Below are positions 1-56,278 of a DNA stretch of 64,000 bases, piece by piece. Every line of letters begins with the position of its first letter. Positions within the stretch are counted from its first letter, which is position 1. A program made the translations under genes and the position numbers. Source of the DNA: Octopus vulgaris (lineage: Eukaryota). Where the stretch lies: NCBI GenBank assembly GCA_951406725.2, contig OX597838.1:44330001-44394000 (forward strand), written 5' to 3'. The notes under the pieces were generated by a model, which did not search any database, was not told where the DNA came from, and worked only from the letters and a program-made list of their open reading frames with translations.

Positions 1-45
1 AGGTCCAGCTTTTTTTGAAGACACCTACACACACACATATAAAAT

Positions 46-99
<54 letters not shown>

Positions 100-589
100 A
101 TATATATATATGTCCGTATGTATGTATATATGTTTATATATAGGTACTTATATGTAGGTGTGTATATAAGCACGGAGTATTATAATTTCACTCAAGATAT
201 ATTCTATTATTTGTAAACAGAATATTATCCATATCGAAATGATATTACCGTCATTTTAATATTGTATCTCTTAATTAACTGTAAATGTAGAAATTCTCGT
301 TTTTCACCTAGCAATGCATCTTATTTCGTGGTATTCTTGAAAATAGGCGTTGTCAATGTGGTCGATTATAAATTATTTCGTTGCCTCACATCATCGCTCT
401 ATAGAATGATAAACTATGAGCGTCAGAAATTGTGTTCCAATTTGGTTGACGGTAATACATACATACATACATACATACATACATGACTATAGTTGACCAC
501 TTTTGATCGAAGAAGACCACCACTAACCATTTCCCAAGCAAAACCTCAGCATAAGTTTATAGCAGGTGCGGTCTTCGCCACCCGGGTTC

Positions 590-3734: not shown

Positions 3735-4260
3735 ATAATAGCACAATATGACTTTTTACCAATTATATCTACTTGAGCTTTCTTACACTTAACACTCCGG
3801 ATGACTAAATTTTTATATTCTTATTTTACAACTCCAGTACACACAACTCTTCTCCCCTTCTAAAGTGTTTACCATTTTTATACTATGGTCTTTCTGTATA
3901 AATTTTATCTGTTAACGGTTTGCAGCCATTTACTCAACATGCAGGAATTGAACACCTATTTTGTATATCTTTATCTACCTCTGAAGAAATTCAACTTTTA
4001 TATAATTTTTAATTTAATTAATTTTCTGAAGGTCTAGAATTGAAACAGCTGTAAGGGATGTTTGTCAATTTTTTAATTAATAAATAATAATTTATTAATT
4101 AACTCTCAATTTTCTCATTTATTATAATAAATAAATGTATATTAACCACGATTTATATAGTTAGGTATTAAATGTAATGTTCAATATTCTTTGTATAGGT
4201 AATTAACCAGTATTTCCATAGGATTTTGCTATCCCTGAATGAGGTTTATAACCTTTAATT
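3735..4260 (+). mobile_element. Probable PLE 3' pseudo-LTR/tail fragment
   Basis: AT-rich non-coding block containing a minimal HHR (3975-4060) and ending at a (GT)n tract, similar to the PLE ends at 19610 and 52457. Confidence 0.55.
3975..4060 (+). ncRNA. Minimal type I hammerhead ribozyme motif
   Basis: cct-CTGAAGA(3981)-AATTC...GAATT-GAAAC(4042)-AGCT-GTA-aggg. Stem I is short (cct/agg), stem II has a long AT-rich loop, and stem III is the palindrome ACAGCTGT. Confidence 0.7.
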
Positions 4261-4519: not shown

Positions 4520-4577
<58 letters not shown>

Positions 4578-7535: not shown

Positions 7536-9548
7536 TACGCTACAAATGATAAACTAAACCGGTATTCTACAAAGGATAAAAAAACTGTACACAACAAATG
7601 ATAAACAGCTGGAAACATTTTTACAGACAATACATGGATTTACCAAAGATAGAAACATGAAATTTGGATTAGAAAACTGCGCCAAGGAAAACTTGAAAAG
7701 GGGATGTCTATGTAAGAATAGCAACATCACACTTGATAAAGAAATGAAATCAGAGAATAAGACTAAAAGTAAACATACAAATACTTAGGAATCAATGAAC
7801 TTGATACGATACAACACAGACCAATGAAAGAGAAAATAAAAGAGAATAATATAGACGAGTTGGGTTCATACTGAAAACAGAGCTCAATGCGGAAAACAAG
7901 ATAACAGGTACCAACACTTTAGCCGTCCCAGTTATAAGTTACAGCTACAATGTCCTAAACTAGACACTAAATGAACTAATCAAAACAGACAGGAAAACAA
8001 GAAAAATAATGGCAGGATTTAAGATGCACCACCCAAAAATCTGGCTGAGAAAGGTTATATATACAACATATAGACGGTGGTAGAGGCCTTATACAGCTGG
8101 AAATGTATGGAAGGTGGTAGAGGCCTTATACAGCTAGAAATGTATGGAAGGTGGTAGAGGCCTTATACAGCTAGAAATGTATGGAAGGTGGTAGAGGCCT
8201 TATACAGCTAGAAATGTTTGGAAGGTGGTAGAGGCCTTATACAGCTAGAAATGTATGGAAGGTGGTAGAGGCCTTATACAGCTAGAAATGTATGGAAGGT
8301 GGTAGAGGCCTTATACAGCTAGAAATGTATGGAAGGTGGTAGAGGCCTTATGCAGCTAGAAATGTATGGAAGGTGGTAGAGGCCTTATACAGCTAGAAAT
8401 GTATGGAAGGTGGTAGAGGCCTTATGCAGCTAGAAATGTATGGAAGGTGGTAGAGGCCTTATACAGCTAGAAATGTATGGAAGGTGGTAGAGGCCTTATA
8501 CAGCTAAAAAAACTATTACAAAATAACCACCATAGGACTACAAAAATATCTACTTCAGAAGCAAGGAAAACTTATGCAAATAGCCACAAAATACGAACGA
8601 AACCAAAAAAAGCTTTCAGTCTTTAAGGAAGCTGACAAATAAAAAAAGAAGTTATGGTAACAAACAACTATGAGGAAACAGAAGAAAAAACAAAAGCTGT
8701 AAAACAACTGAAATCCAAACTAAAACTGGAACAGCAACGAATCATGATGAAACGATGGCAAGAAAAGCCCCTTCATGGCAAATACTGTGTTAAACTAAAC
8801 GCAAAAGAAATAGACAAAGCAAAATCCCAATAATGGCCGAGAAACTCAAGAATCAAAGCAGAAACTGAAGGATTTTTAATTGCAGCACAAGATCAAATCC
8901 CCCACATCAGAAATTACCAAAAATACATAATGAAAAGAAACATAACAAGTACTGAAAAATATTTGGAGATGGACAAGAGGGCATATATTCACAGACACGA
9001 CAGAGTTGGGATCTACATTTATTGGAAGCTATGACAACACTATGGAAGACAAACAGGAAAAAAGATTGTATAGTCACACGCCAGAAAAGGTCAGAGAAGA
9101 TGAGGCAGCAACCATACTCTGGGATATGTCAATACACACAGATAGAGAAATTAAGGCCAATAGGCCAGATATAGTTTTCAGAGATCATGAAAAAGATGCT
9201 TTCTAATTGATGTATCAATAACAATAGATTACTTTCAAAAATATACAAAGGCCTGGAAATAGAGGTAACTCGAATGTGGAGTCTAAAAACAGAAGCAATT
9301 CCTATTATAGTAGGCACATTAGGTGTGATAAAAAAATATTCAGACAAATACATAACAAAAACACCAGGACTAACATATATATAACATACAGAAAATAGCA
9401 CAACTAGGCACTGCACACATCTTACATAAAACACTTTCAATACAGTAATTATAAGAGCATCACAACAAACTACAGCATATACCCAAGGTACAGAGAGCTG
9501 CGCTCGGTATTGAAGTGAAAGCACGTTATAAAAATAAGAATACTGAAT
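7534..9548 (+). mobile_element. 5'-truncated, degenerate R4/Dong-like LINE (family A) between (AAT)n arrays
   Basis: Frameshifted motifs MKFGLENCAK, YKYLGINE, LKTELNA...LAVPVISYSY, MHHPK, GGRGLIQLE, WQEKPLHGKY, ETEGFLIAAQDQ, RHDRVG and KANRPDIV (restriction-like endonuclease). Flanked by (AAT)n on both sides. Confidence 0.9.
8076..8506 (+). repeat. 37-bp minisatellite, about 11.6 copies, inside the LINE GGRGL motif
   Basis: Unit GGTGGTAGAGGCCTTATACAGCTAGAAATGTATGGAA repeated head to tail with few substitutions and no spacers. Confidence 0.95.
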
Positions 9549-9560
9549 AATAATAATAAT

Positions 9561-11337
<1,777 letters not shown>

Positions 11338-12600
11338 ATCAATAAGATGATCTTAGAAGATTGTCATAAACAACACAAAAACTTGTCAATAGCCTGGATA
11401 GACTATGAAAAGGCTTTTGATAGCCTACCACATGGATTAAGAAATGCCTGGAAAAGTATAAAATAGCGCCTACTCTGCGAAACTTATTGTCTGTAAGTAT
11501 GAGATCATGGAGAACCACACTAACTTTGAACAGTGACGTTGAATCTGTAAATGCTGGTGATTTAAAAATTTCATGTGGCATTTTCCAGGGTCACTATCAC
11601 ACTCCTTTTTTGTTTAGCCTTAATACCTCTCTCAAAATTGCTCAATGACGCACAGTACGGATATAAAATGTTGGATAAAAATATAAATCATCTCATTTAC
11701 ATGGATGATTTAAAGCTCTTTGCAAAAAATGACCAACAACTCAAGGGCTTACTAACGAGTGTTAAATAATTCAGCGATGACATCAGAATGCAATTTGGCC
11801 TCGATAAATGTGCAAAAGCTACCTTCATCAAAGGAAAAATGACATAAATATCTAACGTTAACCTTGACCAGCAGCATGTCATAAAAGAGTTAGACCCAGC
11901 GGAGAGCTACAAGTACCTAGGGATAATTGAAGGGGACGGAGTAAGGCATTCAATGATGAAGGAAAAGATCAGGAGAGAATGTTATCTCAGAGTGAGAGCA
12001 ATACTCAAGACAGAGCTGAATGCGAGAAGCAGGATCGAAGCGATGAATGCTTTAGCCATACCAGTCGTGACTTACAGTTTCAATATCGTTAACTGGTCAA
12101 TTACTGAAATATGTAATCTTGATAGAAATATACGAAAACTGTTGACAATGCATAGAATGCACCACCCTAAGGCAGATATAGAACGACTCTATCTGCCAAG
12201 AAAAGAGGGAGGCAATAACAATGAAGATTGCTACAATTGGCCTAGACACCTACCTGAAAAATTCTGTTAAAACTTGTTTCAAAACATCAAAACAAGAAAG
12301 CATCATACTCAGTAACAAAAACAGGTAAAGGAATATCTAAGTGAATTCCGAATACAACAAATTTCGGAATTAGACATACAAGAAACAAGCGCAGAAAAAG
12401 CTAAGCGCACAAAAACCCGTGCTAAAACGGCGGCCTTAGATATTCAGAATGATAAATGGAAAGAAAAACCTCTCAATGGCAAATACCCAAAAGAGAGCGA
12501 ATAATGCAGATGTTGACAAAGCCCTGAACCATCAATGGCTAATGGCCTGTGGCTTAAAATCTAAAACAGAAGGGTTTATCATAGCAGAAGGGTTTATCAT
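11338..12600 (+). mobile_element. R4/Dong-like LINE family C internal fragment (RT core) nested in family B
   Basis: LSIAWIDY..AFDS, GIFQG..LLFCLALIPLS, NHLIYMDDLKLFAK, FGLDKCAK, MHHPKADIERLYLPRKEGG. Contains stops and frameshifts, and ends in (AAT)n. Confidence 0.9.
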
Positions 12601-15422: not shown

Positions 15423-15878
15423 AGTAAAAAAATATTTTAAATTAAACAAAAAAAAATTATATAGTTATTTATTTCTATTTGTTTATTTATCTGTGTATTT
15501 CATTTATTATGTTTTCGGCTTTGTTTATATTGTGACCAGTTTATTGGGTTCCTCTACCGTCATATGTTGTAGTGTGTGCTAGTGTTCCATTCCAGATTCC
15601 TATTCAGGCTAGGTTTATCTTCTATTATATGTGTAGCTTCTGTAATTTGTCTGATTGTTGCATCTGTTCTATGTGTGGACAAGATTTTAACTTCTATGTT
15701 GTTGATTGATCCCCCGTGTTCCTGTTCGGCGTGTTGGTACAGAATCGATGAGCTTTTACCTTCATCGATTCTGTACCAACACGCCGAACAGGAACACGGG
15801 GGATCAATCAACAACATAGAAGTTAAAATCTTGTCCACACATAGAACAGATGCAACAATCAGACAAATTACAGAAGCT
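14940..15878 (-). mobile_element. 5'-truncated PLE: GIY-YIG C-terminus plus pseudo-LTR, with a fold-back at the 5' junction
   Basis: Minus strand SSILYQHAEQEHGG...VKILSTHRTDATIRQITEATHIIEDKPSLNRNLEW* resembles a PLE endonuclease end. The 3' end abuts (TA)n. Perfect 117-bp inverted arms at 15635-15751 and 15762-15878. Confidence 0.75.
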
Positions 15879-18552: not shown

Positions 18553-19573
18553 TCTATATATATAAAACTCTAGTATATATATAAAACTGTAGTTGTGTGA
18601 GTGTCTGTCCCCTTCGATTTAGATTCCTAACTACTCCCACATTTTGCGGTGCAGTTTAACCAAATTCGGGTATCTTATAGTCGTGATTCATATCGAGCCC
18701 GTCTGGGTATTAGCGCGCGTCTACGATGAGTCTACGATTTAAAAAATAATTTACCATCATTTTTTATTCCATTTTAATGCATATTTTTTCGTGTGTCGAT
18801 GGCGACGGAGTTGACGTCCACGCTCACACCTGTGTTGCTTCTCCCCCTTCTTCCCTCCCTCGTGAAGCTGTGGGGAAGGGAGTGTAAGGAAATCAACGTC
18901 GTAATGCGTTGTCAAGGAGACTAGCGTTCTTTTAGAAAGACTTCATGGCTTGAAGTCGCCAAAACAGAAATCGCTAAAAAAGCTGAAACAGATCCACAAA
19001 AACAGCAATTACCGCCACACAGGGCAGGTTTCCTGTGCAAACAATTTGCACAACCGAATGTTTTAGTTGTTGCACAAATCTTTATATATAAAAGTAAGGT
19101 TGTGTGTCTGTCTCCTACGATTTAGATTCCTAACTACTCCCACATTTTGCGGTGCAGTGTAACCAAAACCGGGTATCTTATAGTCGTGATTCATATCGAG
19201 CCCTTCTGGGTATTAGCGCGCGTCTACGATGAGTTTACGATTTTTAAAAAATTTACCATAATTTTTTATTCCATTTTAATGCATTTTTTGCTATTATATA
19301 AGGGAAGTAACTCTCTAAAAATGTCTACGATGAGTCAACGATTAAAAAAAAAAATTACCATAATTTTTTATTCCATTTTAATGCATTTTTCGCTATTATA
19401 TAAGGGAAGTAGCTCTCTAAAAATGTCTACGAAGAGTCAACGATTTAAAAAAAATACCATCATTTTTTATTCCATTTTTAATGCATTTTTTGCTATTTTT
19501 TGCTATAACTCACTAAAAATGCTTATATAGTTATTTCCCTTACAAACCCGAGCAACGCCGGGCGATACTGCTA

Positions 19574-19574
<1 letters not shown>
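18553..19574 (+). mobile_element. Non-autonomous Helitron, composite with two 5' ends
   Basis: Begins TCTATATATATAAAA and ends with hairpin CCCGAGCAACGCCGGG followed by CTAG at 19571-19574. A second TC-TTTATATATAAAA start at 19079 repeats the 5' module. Confidence 0.8.
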
Positions 19575-19612
<38 letters not shown>

Positions 19613-19651
19613 TAAAAAATGGAGTTAACGCAGGTTTAAACAAGTATTTTT

Positions 19652-19737
19652 ACTTTCGACACATGTTTCGAAAATTCCACTGATACTATTCAAAAGAATA
19701 AATGGTATAAACAATGCAATCTTCTCTTCGGGAAAGT
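19652..19737 (-). ncRNA. Hammerhead ribozyme motif, CCGAAGA core variant
   Basis: Minus strand: actttc-CCGAAGA-gaagatt...aattttc-GAAAC-ATGT-GTC-gaaagt. Stem I 6 bp, stem II 7 bp, minimal stem III. Confidence 0.8.
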
Positions 19738-19939
19738 GAAAAAAAACGAAACTCGTCAATACGACATTTTAGCAAAAAATGATGGATTTGTATAGCGATA
19801 GACAGAACGCTATTAATATTGTTTAAAAAAACGTTATATGATATAACGTCATAAGTAGCTAACAGAAAGAGTAGGGATATTAATAGTGAATGTTAAATAT
19901 AAAGGAAATTAAAGTTTAAATTATATATAATGATAGAGA

Positions 19940-22252
19940 CTACTTATATGCACTAAATGTATGTTTTTGCCAATGCTTACATCTGTATGCTCGCTCTATA
20001 ACCGTGTTTACTAGAGTATTTTTAGAAAAAATAATGAAAAATAGCTCAGAATTGCAGAGAAGACAGAATTTCTTGCCTTTGTCATATGGTATCGAAATTG
20101 AGAGGATCAACCATTCTAAATGAAATTGTTCATTGTTGTCTTTTAAATCCCAAATCAGTTTGCTGAGACCGGTACTATTCCGTTTATTTCTATCCCTAAA
20201 TGTTGAGTAATGGATAGAAATTCTTTTAGATAACACTAACGATGTGCTTCCAATGTAAAATCGTACTTTATTACGAGTACTGATTATACACTGGTATATA
20301 GAATTTTTAATCTTAGAGTTACTTGACATAAATTTAATTCTATTGGAATTGACTTCAGATACAATATTAATATTTCTAGAGGGTTGGATGGTATTAGCTA
20401 AATTAATGTTAGTATTAGTAAATGTATTAATATTTATCAGTTTGTTATTATGAGAAGATATAATTTGCAAGAGATTTTTTGTGTTTGAAAAACCTATCCT
20501 AACCTTATGTGAATTAATTATAGAGTAATATCTTGAATTGTTTGGAAAATTCCTAGCAATAGCTTGACGAAACAGCAGTGGGAGATTAGATTTAATTTGT
20601 CTCCCGTAAGGAATTATTAACCAAATATTTTTACTAGTATTCATAGCGTAATTACTTTTGAAGGTGTTATATTTACTTTTAGATCGGTAATAGGGGAATA
20701 AATAAGGGTTATCTGCCTTCATTCGCTTTGTATCGGTGCGTAAGTTATGTTTGTTATCAATAATTCTTTTACGACTAGAAATCTTATCTACATTATTGAA
20801 TTTACAATTAGACTGAGCAGAATCAATGTAGAAAATTTTTTCTGTATAACCTGCTTTGATTAAGGCAGAGTTATAGAATTCAGCGTTATTATTGAATATA
20901 TCAACATTAGCAGATAATTTAGATAATCTAAATGAAATATTCTTAACTAAATTCTTAGTAATTGCTCCAGGATGATTACTAAATTTGCTAATGTACTTAA
21001 GATTGGTCAACGGTTTATGATATGGGAAGTAAGAGTCACTGTGTAAATTAAGCGTAATATCTAAAAAGTTGGCCTTCGTCAGATCGTCTTCAAAAACGAT
21101 TATTAAGCCCATTCTACTGAAAAAATTAACTAAACTATTCTTAACTTTTTGTACCTTTTGGTTGGAAACATTTTGGAGGTAAAGTAAACAATCATCACGA
21201 TATAGACCTCCATAAATGTTAGGGAACTCTTCAGCCATTTCAAAAAGAATATATATACAGACCAAATCAGCTATCTGTGCTGAATCAGAACTTCTCATTG
21301 GTATATCGAAACTATCTGGTGTGTCTTTACGGACCCACAACTTATTATCAAATTTAATAATAGATCTTCTGGCTGCCAACACAACATTAATTTCTTCTCG
21401 GGTGAGACCAGCTTTGTTATGAGCAAGCCAAAGTGCCTTACTAAGTACTATTGGATTGATAGATGAATAAAAATTGGAAATATCAAACTGGATAAACTTA
21501 GTACTCACCTTATTGGTAATAGACCTAAACCAGTCAACTACTTCAAATGAATTAGTCCATAAACTAAGTTTTAATGTTTTGATTAAATTAGGAATATATT
21601 TATCTAGTATATTTTTACTAAGGATACCGATGTCAGAGCTAGAAGGGCAGATAAGCCTTAATGACGGGTTAGTAAAAAAATTTGGTTTGTGATCCTTCAA
21701 AATGAACCGAGGTTGCTTAGGAACAAGTGGTTCTGTCTTCATTTGTAGGTTATATTTCTCTTTCATAGCCTCAATGTTGGCTTTCTTAAGTATTCTTTTA
21801 TCAGCAATTTTATATTTTTTCTGAATTTCTTTTTTAAGTAATTCCAAATAATAGTCTTTATAAAGTTTGTACAGATTTCCAGTCTTATCAGATTGAACCA
21901 ACATAGTATCCATAGAATTGATTTCTTTGGTGATGTTGCGAAGATACCTCAGATGTTTATTTCTTAGTGGTGATCATTGAAATTTTACATTTCTCACAAT
22001 GGACCAGAGATCATCTTCAAATTTCTTCAACCTTGGGTTAGGCGGCGGACTATTTTTAGATTTAAATAATTTGTTGAACTCAGATGTTTTATCATTAGTG
22101 TGTTGTTGAGTGTCATTTTTGTCAAAGAAAAAGGTAAGCCATCTTATTCGGTTGATGAATGAATTAATCTTATTGACGAGTTGTTTAAGGAAAACATTCT
22201 TAGGTGGAATAGGAATGTCCTTAAGGGATGCGTTAATATTCAATAACTCCAT
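19940..22252 (-). CDS. PLE reverse transcriptase plus GIY-YIG endonuclease (770 codons, one in-frame TGA at 21974-21976)
   Basis: ORFs 21974-22252 and 19940-21913 share a frame (VKFQ*SPLRNKHLRYLRNITKEINSMDT). Motifs: SLKDIPIP..RIRW..FF, SDKTGNLY, QFDISNFYSSI, LYRDD, FLDITL, SNHP, SIYQ..FYIGST..KRI..H, CLLC..E, CKH. Confidence 0.88.
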
Positions 22253-22396
22253 ATGCTGTAACTATTCAGTTAGCAGGTTATTAATAAACCTGATTAAAGT
22301 ATTATAAATAGATGAGTGTATTTTTACCTTGTTAACAATTAACACGGAAAAATAAATTTATATTTCACCCTATATCTGTAATGATATATATATATA

Positions 22397-23300
22397 AACG
22401 CACTATTAGAACGCACACGTGTACACCGGCAACAGATTAGAGACCCAGAGGTCCGTCAGATACCTTTGAGTAACCACCTAGCAACATGTGGTCGGAAAAT
22501 ATATATAATATTTCCATTCTACAAATTACACAGCCCAAGTGAAATCGAGAGGAAAATCAGAGAAAAGAATTTTATTGGTAAATTCGAACCCAAGCTAAAT
22601 AAGCAATAATAATAATACTTAGAGGTATTACTTCCACTGCTACGACCATGACCACTAACAACAACAACAATACTAAAGGTGATCAAGACGAAGATAGCAG
22701 GAAAATTATCTTATTTAGGGTTAAAAGTTCTATTGCCACCACCATCACCACTAGCAACAATAATTAAGGTGCTGACAATGATGATGATGACAATTGAAAT
22801 ATAAAAATATAAAAAATCTCTGACAAAGGATATTTACAACATTTCTAAAAATAACCCAACAATTGCTGCTTCGGCCAGGGTCAAGATACAGGACTCTTGA
22901 CCTGTCCAACAAAGCGTGATGCCTAAACCAATCAGCTCAACCAACCAATCAGCTTAAGTAATTGAGTGATACTACACACTGATTGGTCAGAATACAGTTT
23001 GCAAAACCTAGCACTCTGGAGCCTACCCAGCTGTATTTATAGCACAGAATCACTCATCTTGCTACAGTCAAAAATTGTGAAGCATGACTGTCAACACTAC
23101 TACATGAACCCGAAGATTGCAGAATTCAATGCATGAAAGTACTAGTTCAATCAGAATGAATATTTAACATTCTACTATTTCATTTTATTTTATTCAATTA
23201 TAATATATTATCTTATAATATATCATTATAAGATTGTAAATAAAACGTGAAAATCAGACAAGGTTGGAATTCTTTTTATTAATATATTCTTCTATACACA
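22397..23300 (+). mobile_element. 5'-truncated PLE of another family: GIY-YIG C-terminus (22397-22609) plus pseudo-LTR
   Basis: Frame not in the ORF track: ERTRVHRQQIRDPEVRQIPLSNHLATCG...FPFYKL...RKIREKNFIGKFEPKLNKQ*. HHR at 23105-23149, and the element ends at (TA)n. Confidence 0.8.
23105..23149 (+). ncRNA. Minimal hammerhead ribozyme motif, CCGAAGA core
   Basis: tgaac-CCGAAGA-t-tgca-gaattcaa-tgca-t-GAAA-GTAC-TA-gttca. Stem I 5 bp; stem III is the palindrome AGTACT. Confidence 0.8.
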
Positions 23301-23311
23301 ATCACACACAC

Positions 23312-23429
<118 letters not shown>

Positions 23430-23706
23430 TTACAGATATAGGGTGAAATATAATTAATTTAATAAAATCTAAAGGAAATGAGTCTTATGATTCTAATCCA
23501 GAAACGTACATCCATAATTAACCGAAGACTGATTTCATTATTTTTCTTCTTTTTTTTGCCATATTTGAGTTGCAAATATTGTTGTCTGTGGAGACATATT
23601 TTTGTAGTAATAGGAAATAGTAGTCCTTTGGCTGCTATTTCTAAAATTTTCGGTATGTGGTCAAATCACTTGTTGCAAAAAACCTTATTGTTATAATTAT
23701 ATTTAT

Positions 23707-23869
23707 ATATACGAAATTAATTTGTGTAAAAATCAATAAGAAGAGTATGTGTATAAAACTATTAGCAGTGCATCTAATTCATGTTGTATGAAGCATTTAT
23801 AGTAATATTAGATTCTCTTTAGATAGAGTACTCTTTTTATTGATTTTTACACAAATTAATTTCGCATAT
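23707..23869. mobile_element. MITE-like or fold-back element with 41-bp inverted termini
   Basis: 23707-23747 versus the reverse complement of 23829-23869: 2 mismatches. Confidence 0.65.
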
Positions 23870-24248
23870 TTACCCCCTTACATCGGTTGTCAATTGCATA
23901 TTTATTAGTAACATGATTGGTACTATTTGCAGTTTAAGGAATTCACGCTGAAAAAATCCAATTAGGCTTCGCACAAGCATGGATTTATACCAAATTGGTT
24001 ATTCAACCAAGAATATACCGATTCCACCAAAACATCTCTATCTTTGAATGCTGCAAGAGAAATTTGAGGACCTTGTTTGCTTTCGTATCACTTCACATCT
24101 GTCCTTTAAACGTGAAACCCCTTGGTTGCGTAGCTCAATTAGCGCCTGATAAATGTACTTATGTATGTGAAACTGTTAGTAGCCCATATAATGCATGTAA
24201 TGTGATGCATTAATAGTAATATATATATATATATATATATTGATATAT

Positions 24249-24319: not shown

Positions 24320-25925
24320 GACGTTAGAGGAGCGAACGAAGTTGACTCTCAACATAAAATCTCAGACATAACCTTCACTGCCACTGACATCATAGCAGCA
24401 ATAAATGAGGTCAAATACTACTCTGCTGTAGGCCCTTATAGATTCCCCGCTAGTCTCCTGAAGGAATGTAGACACCAACTTGCAGTCCCTCTGACCAACC
24501 TCTGGAGAAATTCGTTAGATGCAGGTTATATACCGAAACAGTTCCTATCCCAGTCAGTCATCCCGGTTTTCAAACAGGGAAACAGATCCCTCGCACTCAA
24601 CTATCGCCCAATCTAACTCACCTCCCACATTATCAAAGTGTTTGAAAGAGTGTTAAGATCAAGGATAGCTGACTTCCTGGAGACCTAGAAACTCCTAAAT
24701 GCAAATCAGCATGGCTTTCGCTGTGGCAGGGACTGTCTAACACAGCTCTTACACCACATTGAAGATCAAAATTGTCAAATGTTGGAATCCGTGGAAAAGT
24801 TCTACACTAGATCAAGTATTTCCTGGAGAATAGAACACAACATGTTGTAGTTGATGGAGTCCACTCAAGCCCAGCAAAAGTCACCAGCGGTGTCCCCCAG
24901 GGGACTGTCATGGGTCCGGTACTCTTCATAATCTACATAAACGACCTTTCCAGTGTCGTACATTACTGCAAAGTGAAAATATTTGCTGATGACACCAAGC
25001 TCCAGCAAATCGTCAATGAAGAAGCAGACCGAACTCAACTCCAGTCTGATCTATATGCTGTGAGTCAATGGGCAGACAGAAACAAAATGCAACTGAACGA
25101 GGGAAAATTTGAGCTGATGCATTTTGGAAGAAATTCCTCACTAAAACAGCCATACTCTCTTCCTTCAGGGGAACCGCTCACAGCCTCTAACAACGTCAGA
25201 GACGTAGGTGTAATTGTTGATGATCTCAGTTGGAGTGCACACATCAACAAGAAGGTCGATATAGCTCGTAGGATGAGTTCCTGGATCTTAAGAACTTTCC
25301 GGTCCATAGAACAAGGTGTCATCATACCACTCTTCTCCTCCTTTGTACGGCCACACCTCGAATACTGCTGCCCACTGTGGTCTCCCCATACAAGAGAAAA
25401 CATCTCGAGGATTGAATCACCCCAGAGAGCACTCACTAAACGAATTGAAGGCATGGCTGCTCTCGATTATTGGGATCGCCTTAAAGCCTTGAAACTCTAC
25501 TCTCTCCAGCGTCGCCGTGAGCGGTACATCATTTGTACAATGTGGAGAATATACCGCCAACTTTGCCCAAACGACCTGAACATAAGCTTCAAGGTTCATA
25601 CGTCCCCTGCCCAATTCAAGATCACAGCATACATATACACTACAACATAATTTCTTTTCTTCAACAGGCCCTGCCCTATTTAACATTGTCCCGAAAGAGA
25701 TCAAAGAGGAACAGGATCCCATCAACTTTAAGCGGAGTCTGGATAGATTCCTTCAAAGAATACCAGATAAGCCACCCATAATTGGATACAACTCACTACT
25801 TGAATGGACCATAAGCAAAACTTGACTTAAACAGGATTCAAATAATCCTATCAGGTGGTGCTATTAAGTTAGACATGGCCTGGACCAATCATTGGTCGAA
25901 ACACATCTAAGTTTATCTAAGTTTA
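24320..25925 (+). mobile_element. 5'-truncated CR1-like LINE, RT pseudogene
   Basis: VIPVFKQG..NYRPI, QHGFR, SGVPQGTVMGPVLFIIYINDL, KIFADDTKL, VRPHLEYC..WSP, LYSLQRRRER. Contains stops and an internal deletion. 3' hairpin and (ATCTAAGTTT)2 tail. Confidence 0.92.
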
Positions 25926-32067: not shown

Positions 32068-32177
32068 TACAAGGTGTAAAGTAAAGATACTGAATATTCA
32101 GTATACACCACGTGGCAAAATTATGAGTTGAAAATATGTGGAAAAAATATATAAAAAATTATTTTTCCACATATTTT

Positions 32178-32227
<50 letters not shown>

Positions 32228-38786: not shown

Positions 38787-38920
<134 letters not shown>

Positions 38921-38924
38921 TATA

Positions 38925-39036
38925 TAGAAGGAGCTTCTACAGGACTAGAACTGTTTCATTCAAGAGAAATCTTCAGGAAGCTTCCTGAAGATTTCTCTTG
39001 AATGAAACAGTTCTAGTCCTGTAGAAGCTCCTTCTA
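38925..39036. ncRNA. Perfect 112-bp palindrome encoding a hammerhead motif on each strand (+ 38979-39029; - 38932-38982)
   Basis: agcttc-CTGAAGA-t-ttc-tctt-gaa-t-GAAACAG-ttctagtc-CTGTA-gaagct, centred at 38980/38981. A unique tail at 39047-39115 follows, and the unit is flanked by (TA)n. Confidence 0.85.
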
Positions 39037-39112
39037 AATAATAAATTAATTTTACTCTGCTATGTATTGAGTACCTTATTTACTGTGGTTAACCCCGAAT
39101 CAACCCGGGACC

Positions 39113-39150
<38 letters not shown>

Positions 39151-39151
<1 letters not shown>

Positions 39152-39542
39152 TAGCAGTATCTCCCGGCGTTGCTCGGGTTTGTTTCGACCCGCTGGAATT
39201 GGAATTTTTGAAAAGTAAAACTTTTGCATTATGTAGCTTGTTATTCTCTTCAAGTGAACATTTTTCTGGTTGAAATACACCGAAAAGTGGCGACACAGCA
39301 GTCAAAAAATCGTTAAAAAATAGGGATTTTCATAGAAAAAAGCACCTTTTTGATGTAAATAATTTTTGGTGTTAACATGGTCCTATTTGAATTTTATCTG
39401 CTACGGAAGAAAGAGCAACCCTTCTTCTATCATACTCTCAATTTTGGTCAACTTGCGCCGCAGGGTCTCGGAGGAGATAGTGTTAGTTGAAGGCTACCAA
39501 ACCTGGTGCACATAGGCAACTTCAGCTTTATATAGAGAGAGA
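39151..39542 (-). mobile_element. Non-autonomous Helitron
   Basis: Minus strand starts TC(TC)nTATATAAAGC and ends CCCGAGCAACGCCGGGAGATACTGCTAG, essentially the same 3' end as 18553-19574. Confidence 0.8.
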
Positions 39543-47000: not shown

Positions 47001-48664
47001 AAAGATATATTTTGACATATATTTCATAGGTATAAATTGCGTCTTTGGTGGCAATATTGACGATGATTGGTATATATTAGTTGTACAATTGCCCTCGCAT
47101 TTTGTGCTTCTGTATTGATACAATAGAGGGACAGAAAGGGAGGTAAGTGATAAAGTAATAGAGAAAGAAAGGTGGGGGGTAGGGAGGGAGTGAAATATAA
47201 AAATTCTTGAGAGAGAAGACAGCAGGAAGACAAATGGGAATAAATGTTTAATGAGTGTATGTGAGATGCGCAACATGTTGGAGAGAGAGACAGAAAGAGA
47301 GAGAGAAAGAGAGTGAAAGAGAGAGACAGAGAGAGAGACACAGAGAGAGACAGAGAGAGAGAGAGACAGAGAGAGAGAGAGACAGAGAGAGAGGGGGGGC
47401 TGTATCTATGCATGTGTGTGCGATTGAATGTGTATATGTGTGCGAAACGTACAGTTAACTGGAGATAACAACAGATGACTCCATCGACAGGGTGTCAGGC
47501 AATTAACCGAGTAATCGATAGCTCATTTCCTGTCATCTGCAGTGTAGATTACGAAAGGTCAGGACGATAGCTTTCAGTAGTTGGCATAATCTAGCCACAT
47601 ATAATTTGATACGACAAGAGGGAACAAGCTGTTGTTGTTGTTGTTAAAGTGATGGGGTGATAGTTTATAGTTTCAGAGAACCGGCATCATTGTGAAGACA
47701 TATAACCATGTTGCTAATAAATCGAACAACTTAAAAAATGATTCATAGATCGAGTACTTTACTATGATTATGTCTAGGGGAGGGCCACACTGCGCGCTCT
47801 CACATGTAATAGTTTATTGTTAAGGAATAGAGTAGGGAAGTCTGAGAATGTTCTCATCCATTTTAAATTTCAGCAGAGAAAAACGCCTTTAATTACAGCC
47901 GCTGCTACTGCTGTTGTCTTGGCTCTGGCTGTTGTTTTAATGTTTAGAGCAAAGTCATCGCTTGACAGTTGAACAAAGAGACCTAAAAGGAAAAGTGTCC
48001 CGTTATGGTCATCCACTTTCCAGCAGGGCTATGTAGGAACCATGTAGGAACCATGTAGGAACGAGAGTATTTCAGGTATTGTTTGTCTATTTGAGACATT
48101 AAGGTTTGGTTCAAGGGATACATATAGCGGAAATGGAAATATATGAAGCATTTCTGGGTAACAGAACTACATAAAGTATGTCAGAATGACTTTAAAAAAG
48201 AAAACAAACCATGAGTGGCACCTTGGTCAATTGTCATTTACCGTTGACTCAGGGTAATACTGGCGCCATGAGTTCGTATGCGACCGAGGTCATCCAGCGT
48301 CGATCAATAAGAGTTTCAGACAAATGTTATGGTCCTTATAAATAGCTCCTATCCTTTCAAAGGTTTCTGCTCAGTTTCTATCCAAAGAAGGACAAGAATA
48401 TGTATATATATATATATATATATATATTAGAAGAAATGGGGTACTCAGAAATTCGGATGGTTTTATATTTACAGATATTTATTCGTATATTGCATGTTTT
48501 TATATATCATATAACTTAGATAACATATATTAGTGCTTTCTCCCATTCTAGTGGGGTTTTCAAATCGAACTATATATTTATATATATATATATTATATTA
48601 AATTAGAGACAAAACCACTATTAGGCAAATCATACAATGAAAAACTTAAGCCAATACCTAAGAT

Positions 48665-48696
<32 letters not shown>

Positions 48697-48767
48697 CTAC
48701 ATATATATATATATATATATATACGTATATATATATATACATATATATATATATACATATATATATA

Positions 48768-48819
<52 letters not shown>

Positions 48820-48966
48820 CATATATATACAGCCAAAGAGAAGATCGTTATAAATGGCTCCTATCCCTCCAAAGGTTTCTGCTCAATTTCTATCTAAAGA
48901 AAGACATGAATATATATATATATGTGTGTATATATATATGTGTATATATATATATGTGTTTATATA

Positions 48967-49027
<61 letters not shown>

Positions 49028-49056
49028 ATACAATATGTTACATTACTCGGTAGTCA

Positions 49057-49119
49057 AGATAAAACTCTGAGTTTCAGATGCCGAAGTGGAAATCCACAAC
49101 ACCATCTCTTCGGTTATCT
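49057..49119 (-). ncRNA. Hammerhead ribozyme motif of PLE2 (left arm)
   Basis: Reverse complement of 52295-52357. Confidence 0.7.
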
Positions 49120-49313
49120 GGCTATTTGAAAACGTTACGAAAAAATACCGTTAAAAATGAAGGGAAATTACTCTGTTATAACTCTGCTTTGCCTGCGTAC
49201 TTATACATCGCTCGCATTTTTCGTCATAAAAATTATATAAAAATACATAAAAATATATAAAAATATATAAAAATATATAAAATCTTCTTGGGACATAACA
49301 CAGAAAGCATGTT

Positions 49314-51138
49314 CTATCCGTTTTCTTTAGGGGACCAAAAACGTAACAGAAATTTAGTCACATGTGGGCATGATCCGAAAAGCTCTGTCCTTGTATTTAG
49401 ACATGTGGTAGGGTCTAAGCTGCTTTTCCAGATAAGCCATCTCTCCATGTCGCATAAACCGCACCTTCCGCTGCCGTTAGTATAGGGCTTACATCTGGCC
49501 AAAATCTTCCATTGTATGTTATAATCGACACCTTTATCTCTTAAAGACCAAATATGATTGGATAATTGTGTCGCTTTTCTTTTGTTCCAGTGCCTAAAGC
49601 TCAAAGTGTGGTTATTGAACCTGGCCTTGAAATTACCCTCTGTCAGGCCCACGTATTTCTTCGTCGAAACGGTGTCTTTAGTGGTTATAGAGTATACGGT
49701 AGCTTCATATATGATGGTCTTGGACATGCAAGCTCCATTTAGCGGGCACAATTCTTTATTCCTGCATGAACAGCTGTTTTCTTCTTGTGTTTTTTGTATG
49801 TTATGATTGATTATGTTTTTAAAATTGGTAGTTGAACTAAAACTAATTTTTAAATTGTGTCTATTGAAGAGTTTCCTATAAGCATGGTTAACTGGAAAAT
49901 GTCTATCTATCAGTGCTAGGAAATATTTACCTATATTGAAGGCCACCTCGGGTGAGTAAGGGGGCGTAAACCAGATGACCTTCCTATTTCTATTATTCCT
50001 TTTCCTTATTGTTGGGCTGGTGATAGGTGTATATTTTATTTTTTCGCTAAAACCACTATCTTTTAAAGCTTTATTATAAACTGGGGCAACGCTATTGAAG
50101 ATGTCCTCATTAGATGAGAGGCTAGAAATCCTCTTACTAATATTTTTAACTAAATTTTTGAATACTATAGGGGGATGGCATGAACCTACATTAATATAAC
50201 TTAGTCTATCATTGGGCTTCCTATAAGGCTTATAAATATTATTATTAAGATCTAAGGAAACGTCTAAGAAATTGACAACCGTCAGGTTAGTGTCTATAGT
50301 TATACTAAGTCCGAAGTGTTTCATTAACTGGATAATATCCTTCCTAAAACGATCTTGTGCTGGTCCATTTGTATTAGCTGTTAAGGCGAAGGCATCATCT
50401 TTGTAGATGGCGAAATGTACGTTAGGGAATGTCTTACTGAAGGTATCTAGGAGAAAGAGTCCAATTAGATCACAGATGCCTGCCCCATCATATGAACCCA
50501 TGCTCACATCGAAAGCGCCCTCCGTGTCGGTGTTTTTTATCCACTTTGCATTCTCACTGAAAAGTAATGTCTTTCTAGCATGGAAGATTATATCCTTATC
50601 ATTGGTACTAATTTCTATGAAGTCACTAGCGAAGATTAGGGCTTTATCTAGCAGTTCTTTAGAGATAGAGGCATAAAAATCAACAATATCGAATTGTGTA
50701 AACCTCGCTTTTTTCTTATTCTTAATAGCTTTAAACCAGTCTACGACTTCTATACTATTAGACCATTGCACTAGCCTAGTATCGGTCTTAATTTTCGTAT
50801 TTATTTTATCTAAAATTTCTTTGCTAATAATCCCTAGTTCTGACTTGGCTGGGTTGATAAGCCTACATTTAGGGTTGGAAAGGAAGTTTTCTTTGTGGTC
50901 TTTAATAGTAATAAAGGCCTCTTTTTGGGGGAGGGTTTCTATTTTTTTATCTAATTTAAGTTTAGCGGCGATGACGCTAGCTTCTTTATTAATTTCGTTA
51001 TATGTCTGTGCCCTAGCCTTAGTATAATTATTAATGATGCTGTTGTGTAAGAGTTGTGTGTATTTGCTGTTATCTACCAGGTATAAGTTCTTGGTTTTAT
51101 CCGAAAAAAGTGCTTTTTTCTTGGAGCTTTTTATATGA
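49314..51138 (-). CDS. PLE RT plus GIY-YIG endonuclease, 5'-truncated but with an uninterrupted frame
   Basis: The frame stays open upstream of the listed ORF (FSDKTKNLY...IKDHKENF..PKCRLINPAKSELG). Motifs QFDIVDFYASI, MGSYDGA, YKDD, FLDVSL, CSC..CPLNGAC, IIYEATV..YVGLTE..KARF..H, CGLC..E, LN.R.E..CPH. Confidence 0.9.
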
Positions 51139-51148
51139 TCCTTAGATC

Positions 51149-52100
51149 TTTCCTTAGATCTTAATAATAATATTTATAAGCCTTATAGGAAGCCCAATGA
51201 TAGACTAAGTTATATTAATGTAGGTTCATGCCATCCCCCTATAGTATTCAAAAATTTAGTTAAAAATATTAGTAAGAGGATTTCTAGCCTCTCATCTAAT
51301 GAGGACATCTTCAATAGCGTTGTCCCAGTTTATAATAAAGCTTTAAAAGATAGTGGTTTTAGCGAAAAAATAAAATATACACCTATCACCAGCCCAACAA
51401 TAAGGAAAAGGAATAATAGAAATAGGAAGGTCATCTGGTTTACGCCCCCTTACTCACCCGAGGTGGCCTTCAATATAGGTAAATATTTCCTAGCACTGAT
51501 AGATAGACATTTTCCAGTTAACCATGCTTATAGGAAACTCTTCAATAGACACAATTTAAAAATTAGTTTTAGTTCAACTACCAATTTTAAAAACATAATC
51601 AATCATAACATACAAAAAACACAAGAAGAAAACAGCTGTTCATGCAGGAATAAAGAATTATGCCCGCTAAATGGAGCTTGCATGTCCAAGACCATCATAT
51701 ATGAAGCTACCGTAAACTCTAAACACTAAACACTAAAGACACCGTTTCGACGAAGAAATACGTGGGCCTGACAGAGGGTAATTTCAATGCCAGGTTCAAT
51801 AACCACACTTTGAGCTTTAGGCACTGGAACAAAAGAAAAGCGACACAATTATCCAATCATATTTGGTCTTTAAGAGATAAAGGTGTCGATTATAACATAC
51901 AATGGAAGATTTTGGCCAGATGTAAGCCCTATACTAACGGCAGCGGAAGGTGCGGTTTATGCGACATGGAGAGATGGCTTATCTGGAAAAGCAGCTTAGA
52001 CCCTACCACATGTCTAAATACAAGGACAGAGCTTTTCGGATCATGCCCACATGTGACTAAATTTCTGTTACGTTTTTGGTCCCCTAAAGAAAACGGATAG
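51149..52100 (+). pseudogene. Inverted partial copy of the PLE2 ORF (thumb plus GIY-YIG), frameshifted near 51715-51735
   Basis: ORFs 51463-51729 and 51762-52100 repeat the C-terminal part of 49314-50771. Confidence 0.9.
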
Positions 52101-52294
52101 AACATGCTTTCTGTGTTATGTCCCAAGAAGATTTTATATATTTTTATATATTTTTATATATTTTTATGTATTTTTATATAATTTTTATGACGAAAAATGC
52201 GAGCGATGTATAAGTACGCAGGCAAAGCAGAGTTATAACAGAGTAATTTCCCTTCATTTTTAACGGTATTTTTTCGTAACGTTTTCAAATAGCC

Positions 52295-52357
52295 AGATAA
52301 CCGAAGAGATGGTGTTGTGGATTTCCACTTCGGCATCTGAAACTCAGAGTTTTATCT
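52295..52357 (+). ncRNA. Hammerhead ribozyme motif of PLE2 (right arm), CCGAAGA core
   Basis: agataa-CCGAAGA-gatg...catc-t-GAAAC-TCAGA-GTT-ttatct. Stem I 6 bp; there is an extra U before GAAA. Confidence 0.7.
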
Positions 52358-52453
52358 TGACTACCGAGTAATGTAACATATTGTATAGATAAATTTCCTC
52401 TATTTACATAATATTGAGGTCTCTTTCTTTCTTTTGTTATCTTACCGTTTTAT

Positions 52454-52504
<51 letters not shown>

Positions 52505-52671
52505 TGTCTTTCTTTAGATAGAAATTGAGCAGAAACCTTTGGAGGGATAGGAGCCATTTATAACGATCTTCTCTTTGGCTGTTACATTAAGGCTTATTGA
52601 AATCAAAATCGCAGGCTTATGCCGACTGACCTATCAGCATTTCACTCTCTGTTCTGACTTGTTCGGTGATG

Positions 52672-52724
<53 letters not shown>

Positions 52725-53234
52725 TTGATTGTTGATTTCATAATGGTAGCTTGTGATTGGAGTGACATCTCGTACCTATTTCTTGCAGATGGAGTGAGAA
52801 CGTGACAACCTCTCAATTAATCATTTCCACTCAGACTCGACCCTCTCACGGTTCCTCACTGTGAGGAATGCTTATAATCCAGGGCTAACCGCTTATGTTT
52901 TTTATACTACAACACATTTACCTATATCATCCTTGCCTTCTTTAACTGAGATTAATCATATCTCTCTGTCTAAACAACTCGTGTTCATCTTTTGCCTCCT
53001 TAATACCATCTGAAATGCCTCAGTTTCCATTTGAACGACATCTAGTCTCTCGATGTTCTTCAAATAAGAATGTATCTTGACTAATCACGTGGTACAATAC
53101 TACTGAAAAATTAACGGACTGTTCCAGTGATCCAAAACACATTGAATTACTATCGATTCAATTATATAATGTTGCTGTTGTTGCTGCTGCTACTGCTGCT
53201 GCTGTTGCTGTTGTTCCTGTTCAGTGAAGCAGTA

Positions 53235-53603
53235 TCCGTCCCAGAGCTCGCAAGATCGCTCCTCTGTAGTGGGGGAAGTCCGAAACGTGGTCCTTTCCTA
53301 TTCCTAAGACCCGCAGAAGAGAAAGCAGGTCAACCCCGACACCGAGAGCATCAACAGATGGATGATTGCGCATCCAGGCTCAGCGGTTGCGTAGGAAGTC
53401 GGGGACAAGAAACAGGAAGAAAGAGTGAGAGAATGTTGGGGCGAAAGAGTACAACATGGGTCGCCACCACCCTCTGCCGGAGCCTCGTGGAGCTTTAGGG
53501 GTTTTCGCTCAATAATCACACACAACGCCCGGTCTGGGAATCGAAACCGCGATCCTCCGACCGCGAGTCCGCTGCCTTAACCACTGGGCCATTGCACTTC
53601 CAC
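53235..53603 (-). mobile_element. tRNA-headed SINE with GC-rich body
   Basis: Head TGGCCCAGTGGTTAAGGCAGCGGACTCGCGG...GGTTTCGATTCCC (A and B boxes). A body block is shared with 41930-41995. Confidence 0.8.
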
Positions 53604-53854
53604 TTGCTGCTGCTGCTCTTGTTATTGTTGAACCACGACATAAACATTATCAATAAGTTTGACCTAGGCGCTACATGCAGACTATTGTATATGATGGTGA
53701 TGATGATGATGATGATTATGATGATGATGATGATGATTATGATGATGATGATGATGATGTTACTGGTAAACACCCACCTCCAACTTGATTCAAAAGGGAG
53801 CTGCATGACCAATGGCATTCAAACTGCGATCCTCTTGTCATTTGCCACTTATAA

Positions 53855-54115
53855 GGGCCTTCGCGTGGCTTAGAGGTTGGTCTGCTGCACTCATGATTGT
53901 AAGATCACGGTTTCGATTCCAAGATCACGCCGTGTGTTGTGTTCTGAAGGAAAGTACTTCATTTCACGTTGCTGCAGTCCACTCAACCGCAAATGGGTCC
54001 CCCTGCAACAGACTGACGCCAGGTTCAGTGGAAGGGTTGCGAGCTAAGCGACTTGCACACCATGGAGACTGGGTAAGCGGCATTGTGGGTCCTAAGCCTA
54101 GAAACAAGAATGTGT
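53855..54115 (+). mobile_element. tRNA-headed SINE (Meta-domain-like)
   Basis: GCGTGGCTTAGAGGTTGG...GGTTTCGATTCC...GTGTTGTGTTCTGAAGG..ATTTCACGTTGCTGCAGTCCACTC. Confidence 0.65.
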
Positions 54116-55481: not shown

Positions 55482-55887
55482 CATATATACACATACATAT
55501 ACACACGCACATATATTACAGGCTCACATGGAAAAGGCATATAACTCACATGTATAAATAAGTCGGTGACACGACCAATATCGCTGAAAGCATTAGATAT
55601 ATCAGTAGCTTATATGATAAGCAAAGGATATCAAAGAGAAGGGAATGCAGTAAATAATGTTTGATAATATCTTATCGGATATTACTCGAGATCAATATTA
55701 TCACATTTCTTCTTGTTGCCGTTGGAATATGTCTTCACGTGGATATAGAAATGGTAGGTGTGAGGAAAGAAAATTATATACACCACATGACGTGATTGCG
55801 CGGAAAAGTCAGGAAGTCAGCGGTGTATATATATATATATATATATATATAAATACTTTTGCGTGTGTGTGTATATATACATGTATG

Positions 55888-55927
<40 letters not shown>

Positions 55928-56278
55928 ATATACATATGCATGTATTTGTATGTATGTATGTATGCTTTATATATATATATATATATATGTATGAATATAT
56001 TTTTATATATATATATACACACATACATACATGTATATATACACATACACGCAAAAGTATTTATATTTATATATATTTATATGCATGCATGCTTATACAT
56101 ATATACGCATAAATATATGTATACACGTATATGCAGACATACTCTTGTGCGCAAACATACATATATGCATACGTGAATATACATATGTGTGTGTATGTGT
56201 ATATATTATGTATATAATTACATGTATATATATATATTTACATATACATAAATATATGTAAATATATATATGTATGTG

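Follow-up and report, generated by a model that had tools for sequence, protein, structure and literature searches.

A head-to-head pair of Hydra Penelope-like element copies in Octopus vulgaris is bracketed by exact inverted copies of flanking DNA

How does a short piece of flanking DNA come to stand, in inverted copies, on both sides of a retrotransposon insertion? The question is raised by a locus in a 64,000-nt stretch of the Octopus vulgaris genome (assembly GCA_951406725.2, contig OX597838.1, positions 44,330,001 to 44,394,000 of the forward strand; hereafter the window, in whose own coordinates all positions are given), where two truncated Penelope-like element (PLE) copies of the Hydra clade face each other between two (TA)n tracts, and these in turn lie between two identical, inverted 82-nt sequences that we denote X. 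The inner 3.4 kb of the locus is already known PLE biology, that is, two truncated arms that start at two RNA sites. The duplication of X is real and was probably made by repair; it acts like a fold-back inverted duplication and not like a target site duplication (TSD).

Architecture of the locus and the inverted flank

The quasi-palindrome spans positions 48829-52582 (3,754 nt), and the window contains no N bases. The longest exact reverse-complement match, 48829-48923 against 52488-52582, extends over 95 nt with no mismatches (chance expectation about 2e-37 under a model of independent, identically distributed bases) and is made up of the 82 nt of unique flank, X, and 13 nt of TA. Outside the TA tracts, X pairs 48829-48910 with 52501-52582. 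An earlier reading made from the letters of the window alone (the sequence-only reading) had reported this exact inverted copy, which is borne out, with the right copy starting at 52501 and not at 52500. The features of the locus, from left to right, are the following.

48333..48398, plus strand: third X copy, older, 88% identical, with the same TA-side boundary as the other X copies
48670..48828: outer-left TA/CA composite tract, joined to the left X copy with 1 nt of microhomology
48829..48910, plus strand: left X copy, exact match; the likely derived copy, judging by its outer junction with a TA tract
48911..49022: left TA tract, interrupted by TG (8 TG, 0 CA), putative primer end for the left arm
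49023..51138, minus strand: left Hydra arm, 5'-truncated, with an open reverse transcriptase (RT) and GIY-YIG frame and a 3' untranslated region, no tail
49057..49119, minus strand: predicted hammerhead motif of the left arm (pattern scan; core CCGAAGA begins at 49113)
51139..51162: head-to-head junction, a perfect 12-nt tandem repeat (units 51139-51150 and 51151-51162)
51149..52391, plus strand: right Hydra arm, shorter, frameshifted at 51715-51730
52295..52357, plus strand: predicted hammerhead motif of the right arm (core at 52301, GAAAC at 52339)
52392..52455, plus strand: PLE tail, about 64 nt long and confined to the right arm (putative second RT start site)
52456..52500: right, pure (TA)n tract without interruptions, putative primer end for the right arm
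52501..52582, minus strand: right X copy, exact match; the likely original

The right X copy continues into unique DNA (52583-52670), and the left copy stops at the TA tract. Beyond the left copy, 48670-48831 holds 22 CA and no TG interruptions, and both X-side outer junctions read TGT/ATAT (the slash marks the boundary). The inner TA tracts match each other for 13 nt only, after which the left one has TGs and the right one has none. No direct repeat flanks the insert, the flank copies being inverted; a direct TSD would be invisible within (TA)n, as stated for Naiad/Chlamys elements (PMC8557442), so that the proposal of the sequence-only reading, an inverted duplication instead of a direct TSD, is not supported in that form.

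A diverged third copy of the flank had also been pointed out earlier. We refined it to 48333-48398 (8 mismatches in 66 nt); it is direct relative to the left X copy and is followed by a TA tract of its own. Beyond these 66 nt, homology did not reach significance in shuffle tests (31 of 300 and 64 of 300). The three copies fall within a span of 4.3 kb and share the TA-side boundary, and X has no further match in the remaining ~60 kb of the window. A GTDB pattern scan with X gave no matches, GTDB being uninformative for animal sequence. The third copy may stem from an earlier round of fold-back copying, with this same right flank as its template.

X does not belong to the Hydra element and sits outside the two start sites of the latter. 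Neither X nor its continuation contained a hammerhead motif in a pattern scan, X did not resemble any of four PLE 3' ends taken from the window (28-187 of 200 shuffles), and four short X motifs had only scattered chance matches in the supplement of PMC8557442. A reading of X as the start of a Hydra open reading frame (PIPPK-like) was rejected because its score of 0.2 bits lay below the maximum of 3.7 seen in 300 random pieces, and real Hydra N-termini scored 39.8 and 63.5 bits in the same test. The islands 48428-48570 and 48594-48669 were likewise considered as PLE tails and not accepted (1 of 16 comparisons at 4 of 200 shuffles, in AT-rich sequence).

The inner element is a two-armed Hydra PLE

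By its sequence motifs, and not by a tree, the inner element is assigned to the Hydra clade, which is distinguished by DKT, a CxCX5C linker, CxxC and CxH, and the lack of CCHH (PMC8557442). The open frame of the left arm (49314-51173, minus strand, 619 aa), whose first codons cross the head-to-head junction, carries DKG changed to DKT at residue 25, the linker CSCRNKELC at residue 468, CGLC (CxxC) at 571, and CPH (CxH) at 602, and has no Cys between IIY and YVG and hence no CCHH. The RT catalytic motif is YKDD (YRDD in the aligned homologues), and the N-terminal RWK region has been lost through the 5' truncation; close homologues that span it have RWK or RWR. A GIY-YIG domain match covers residues 492-534 (E = 0.0027, under the gathering score), with IIY..YVG present, and Pfam RVT_1 gave no match to the left-arm frame. 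The closest relatives of the frame are 42-52% identical among the 120 matches listed out of 1,203. In both 3' regions, the predicted hammerhead patterns include stems I-III around a variant core, in the same layout as the Hydra entries in File S2 of PMC8557442; an Rfam search over 47500-54000 gave no hammerhead match and only weak, microsatellite-driven ones. The insertion target is (TA)n on both sides.

Between the arms (49023-50260 against 51149-52391), there are three isolated substitutions and one complex cluster at 51715-51730, in which two substitutions and a 5-nt insertion cause the frameshift of the right arm. The asymmetry described by the sequence-only reading holds: the left arm reaches about 0.9 kb (872-888 nt) further into RT, and the tail is found on the right only. 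The junction stutter it described is also present, as a perfect 12-nt tandem at 51139-51162 and not one of 10 nt; each unit contains the palindromic hexamer AGATCT. The description of the pair itself as a PLE fold-back does not stand. Only one arm is tailed because the arms were primed at different RNA start sites, which is the known tail pattern (PMC8557442, PMC3846280, PMC11167929), and we rejected the fold-back of a single PLE molecule: the longer arm is without a tail, and the arm that has one could not have served as its template, being too short.

Inverted, 5'-truncated copies with a tail on one arm are standard (PMC8557442, PMC3846280), and a PLE protein has been found to nick and extend both strands in vitro, with two RNA start sites and the tail between them (PMC11167929). 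Completion of integration and formation of the inverted arms are presented as an open question in PMC8557442 and PMC11167929. The octopus element shares with the Hydra PLEs of Craig et al. 2021 (PMC8557442) the C-terminal GIY-YIG, DKT, CxCX5C, CxxC/CxH, the lack of CCHH, the hammerhead, the (TA)n target, and the inverted 5'-truncated copy with one-arm tail, and a Hydra PLE is listed for an octopus in the supplement of that paper. The sequence, AT-rich and full of microsatellites, also looks cephalopod-like. It differs in the length of the tail (about 64 nt versus the 30-40 given for PLEs), in the hammerhead core (CCGAAGA versus CTGANGA in the listed Hydra entries), and in the inverted flank duplication, which the available parts of PMC8557442 do not mention for Hydra PLEs. 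The inverted-pLTR (pseudo-long terminal repeat) insertions of Penelope elements in Adineta vaga (PMC3846280) are similar in the head-to-head arms, the optional tail, and the palindromic sequence at the junction; they have direct TSDs of 8-10 bp, whereas none is discernible here in (TA)n.

Fold-back copying of the flank followed by PLE insertion

The reading that we favor, and for which we see about an even chance, stacks two processes: copying of the flank by fold-back at a TA tract and then twin priming by a Hydra PLE. The geometry, the identities, the Hydra features, and the recurrence are observed; what we infer from them is that a fold-back took place, in which direction the copying ran, and which event came first. 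Suppose that the TA tract beside the right flank was broken or nicked, leaving a 3' end that terminates in (TA)n. Once resected, such an end could fold back, since (TA)n pairs with itself, and prime 82 nt of synthesis across the neighboring DNA; joined to the TA tract at the opposite side, the copied end would yield flank-(TA)n-inverted flank. A Hydra PLE would then cut the central TA tract and prime from both strands at two RNA sites, one before the tail and one after it, and the head-to-head joint between the two truncated cDNAs would include a 12-nt slippage repeat. The initial break may be due to the PLE endonuclease or to TA fragility, and the fold-back of the flank could either precede the PLE insertion or start it.

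The copy of 82 nt, the (TA)n at the end of both copies, and the 1 nt of microhomology at the distal junction are consistent with fold-back. In yeast, fold-back insertions at double-strand breaks (Yu et al., PMC11724301) consist of an inverted copy of one break end, 10 to >150 bp long, with 0-5 bp of microhomology; the octopus locus is alike in the copy of one end, its length, the slight far-junction microhomology, and the loop between copy and template, and differs in having (TA)n as the priming homology and a 3.4-kb retrotransposon pair within the loop. A human counterpart is found at LINE-1 (L1) insertions, 0.3% of which carry inverted duplications of 52-220 bp (PMC10191854, process C); as here, tens to hundreds of base pairs of host flank are copied in reverse at the insertion, and in one case priming was by TA/AT homology, as we propose for the octopus locus (10.1101/2024.12.14.628481, Fig. 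4). Such duplications are rare at L1 and apparently repeated at the TA sites of the window.

Several observations weigh against this reading. The L1 duplicate adjoins its template, on the 5' side and with the direct TSD kept, whereas here the insert separates the copies, which bracket it. A simple fold-back predicts matching inner tracts, and the match of 13 nt only means that it would need a large loop or later loss. Tract polarity flips at X, yet 12 of the 23 other tracts are mixed and 11 uniform, which makes polarity a weak test of the copying direction. The third copy shows no significant extension into the right flank in shuffles, and TGT/ATAT at both outer X junctions also fits the two RT starts of another PLE. 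As to timing, X cannot be dated against the insertion because zero differences in 82 nt are expected 77% of the time at the divergence of the arms (P = 0.77); the duplication may predate, accompany, or follow the insertion.

Recurrence of TA-centered inverted pairs

The window was scanned for inverted pairs up to 5 kb apart, with mirror repeats as a control (n = 8). Of the 22 inverted pairs found, eight are bordered by TA at their two inner ends, four of them with arms that are not simple sequence; none of the eight mirror-repeat controls combines TA inner ends with non-simple arms. The four TA-centered, non-simple pairs, denoted by their outer positions, are as follows.

22358/23453: around a PLE fragment
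48336/52563: third X copy and right X copy
48829/52582: left and right X copies
55831/56082: free of PLE sequence

Three of the four thus bracket PLE pieces, two at the focal locus and one in an ambiguous case. The latter, a 39-nt exact pair (22358-22396 and 23415-23453), surrounds a 0.9-kb PLE fragment (endonuclease C-terminus at 22397-22609, hammerhead at 23110) and abuts a full-length Hydra element; it is ambiguous between a fold-back copy and the adjacent element's own tail. That neighbor, a near full-length Hydra-like PLE (19610-22357, minus strand; ATG at 22254, in-frame stop near 21975, hammerhead at 19731), has its 3' end inside a TA tract (19575-19609). The fourth pair, 88 nt long (55831-55918 and 55995-56082; a 43-nt core with one mismatch, unique in the window), encloses simple sequence only, and this counts against any process that requires a PLE insert. 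Two TA-centered pairs have diverged arms (8 mismatches in 92 and 7 in 88). Directly across single TA tracts (47 tracts), there was no clear case of inverted flanks, 55831/56082 spanning two adjacent tracts.

The sequence-only reading had suggested comparing PLE insertions with PLE-free TA tracts. Within the window, inverted flanks look enriched at TA-flanked PLE sites, with two of three against one of 42 (P = 0.009, a post hoc test on very small counts), or one of three against one of 42 without the ambiguous case (P = 0.13, also post hoc). The view of that reading that integration or repair generated the inverted copy holds in part: the duplicated flank does not belong to the element, and repair synthesis is its best source. 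The tie to this particular insertion is not supported, given the PLE-free pair and the inability of zero divergence in X to date the event.

The window contains other inverted or element-derived sequences. A mini head-to-head PLE end at 38915-39116 has two hammerheads and is tailed on its right arm alone; TA tracts flank it on either side, and the inverted-pair scan found no inverted flank at it. At 15635-15878, there is a perfect hairpin (117-nt arms, 10-nt spacer) with endonuclease-like coding sequence, which we take to be that of a GIY-YIG PLE. A Hydra N-terminal fragment (23979-24077, plus strand, 39.8 bits) is preceded by a 41-nt inverted pair with two mismatches (23707-23869), directly before a TA tract there is a 21-nt inverted pair whose spacer is AT-rich and 15 nt long (32126-32182), and non-LTR (long terminal repeat) retrotransposon fragments with zf-RVT and RVT_1 matches are present at 10460-11350 and 24811-25650.

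Hydra loci outside the window

For comparison, we used six Hydra loci (L001-L006) on contigs filed in bacterial metagenome-assembled genomes. These contigs carry animal-type Hydra PLEs, microsatellites, and terminal inverted repeat (TIR) elements and are probably host DNA. One of the six, L002, is a clear case: an inverted copy of about 210 nt (3916-4154 and 8268-8475) brackets the Hydra arms together with a mini-PLE hairpin. The duplicated sequence takes in 30 nt of flank together with a whole TIR element and an interrupted microsatellite, which makes it more than one element. Its flank copies have substitutions and its pLTR arms have none, the numbers being small. Further mini hairpins are present in L002 at 8741-9086 and 9110-10549. 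L003 is a possible case, with outer arms of 695 columns and 23 mismatches around a mini-PLE, which a long-TIR element on a chimeric-looking contig may explain; bacterial-looking sequence joins the PLE arm directly at 4545 in this contig. The other four are uninformative or negative: L001 and L004 are without flanks, the right flank of L005 is represented by about 63 nt, and L006, a fragment, has no inverted flank pair.

Alternative explanations

The strongest competitor, though unlikely in our estimate, is a template switch guided by the arms after the insertion. If the left TA tract suffered a break or a stalled fork, a hairpin of the 1.25-kb arms could place the left TA end against the right tract, 82 nt would be copied, and the strand would be rejoined. 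This explains the asymmetry of the TA tracts without an extra deletion, better than fold-back before insertion does, and it agrees with the absence of differences in X against four events in the arms, with the finding that yeast breaks near inverted repeats drive fold-back priming (PMC10622511), and with the apparent, post hoc enrichment of inverted flanks at TA-flanked PLE sites. It leaves the PLE-free pair 55831-56082 and the single-arm case 22358-23453 unexplained, and in L002 it is the flank copies and not the pLTR arms that carry substitutions, in small numbers. Taken together, fold-back and template-switch copying of the flank, in either order, account for about two thirds of our expectation.

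We consider it quite unlikely that the PLEs are nested, in which case no host DNA would have been duplicated, and X with 52583-52670 would be the end of an older TA-targeting PLE: a small head-to-head pair (an 82-nt arm and a 170-nt arm including an 88-nt tail) would have formed around a TA tract, into which the Hydra pair later inserted. Both outer ends do abut TA tracts with the identical TGT/ATAT junction, tails of about 64-70 nt exist in the window, and 22358/23453 can be read as the ~30-nt tail of the neighboring full-length Hydra. However, X and its continuation lack a hammerhead, whereas all inspected mini head-to-head PLEs carry the core:

window, 38915-39046
L002, 8052-8268
L002, 8741-9086
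L003, 9079-9280

Moreover, X has no similarity to Hydra coding or tail sequence, its short motifs in the PMC8557442 supplement are at chance level, and L002 is left unexplained.

It is very unlikely that a young TA-associated repeat inserted independently more than once, with two copies facing each other by chance. The diverged third X copy would fit this, as would a TA-adjacent repeat end found twice in inverted orientation 19.5 kb apart (19542-19585 and 39140-39183, one mismatch in about 34 nt), presumably Helitron-like. Against it, the three X copies lie within 4.3 kb with none in the other ~60 kb, and two of them, without a single difference in 82 nt, stand exactly at either side of the insertion.

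An assembly or read fold-back artifact is highly improbable: although inverted PLE structures are known to trouble assemblies (PMC8557442) and polishing could have homogenized the two X copies, the arms are told apart by substitutions, an indel, and a canonical tail, neither the TA tracts nor the outer flanks are alike, the window has no N, and the same geometry occurs with diverged arms (8/92 and 7/88 mismatches). Arrival of X by 3' transduction, on read-through RNA from a donor locus, is likewise highly improbable: PLEs can carry host DNA (PMC3846280), but the arms here differ in the tail and TA tract before X, which would call for two donors, each with X downstream.

Implications

The bracketing flank copies are most likely a fold-back repair scar, of a kind known from yeast and human LINE-1, around a PLE pair whose type was known as well. 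In the literature searched, in which most subscription papers were outside coverage, there was no report of inverted flank duplication at PLE sites, and the available parts of PMC9977147, 10.64898/2026.07.22.740005, and PMC13282606 contain nothing on it. The fold-back scar is seemingly recurrent at these TA sites. A bolder reading, which we regard as rather unlikely, is that Hydra PLEs routinely create TA-centered fold-back palindromes or preferentially cut them: either the endonuclease cut would trigger the fold-back, or a palindrome would extrude a cruciform, whose two TA loops would be nicked and each prime one arm. If so, inverted flank copies would be a regular signature of Hydra integration that can recur at one locus, the 88% identical third copy marking an earlier round, and TA palindromes would explain the head-to-head twin arms.

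In repeat libraries, inverted flank copies would also push PLE boundaries outward, and they can pass for assembly errors. Should they prove to be generic TA fold-backs, small inverted duplications would often arise at TA tracts in such genomes; if they are systematically tied to Hydra insertions, they would provide a countable genomic footprint of a repair intermediate, with a simple in vitro test.

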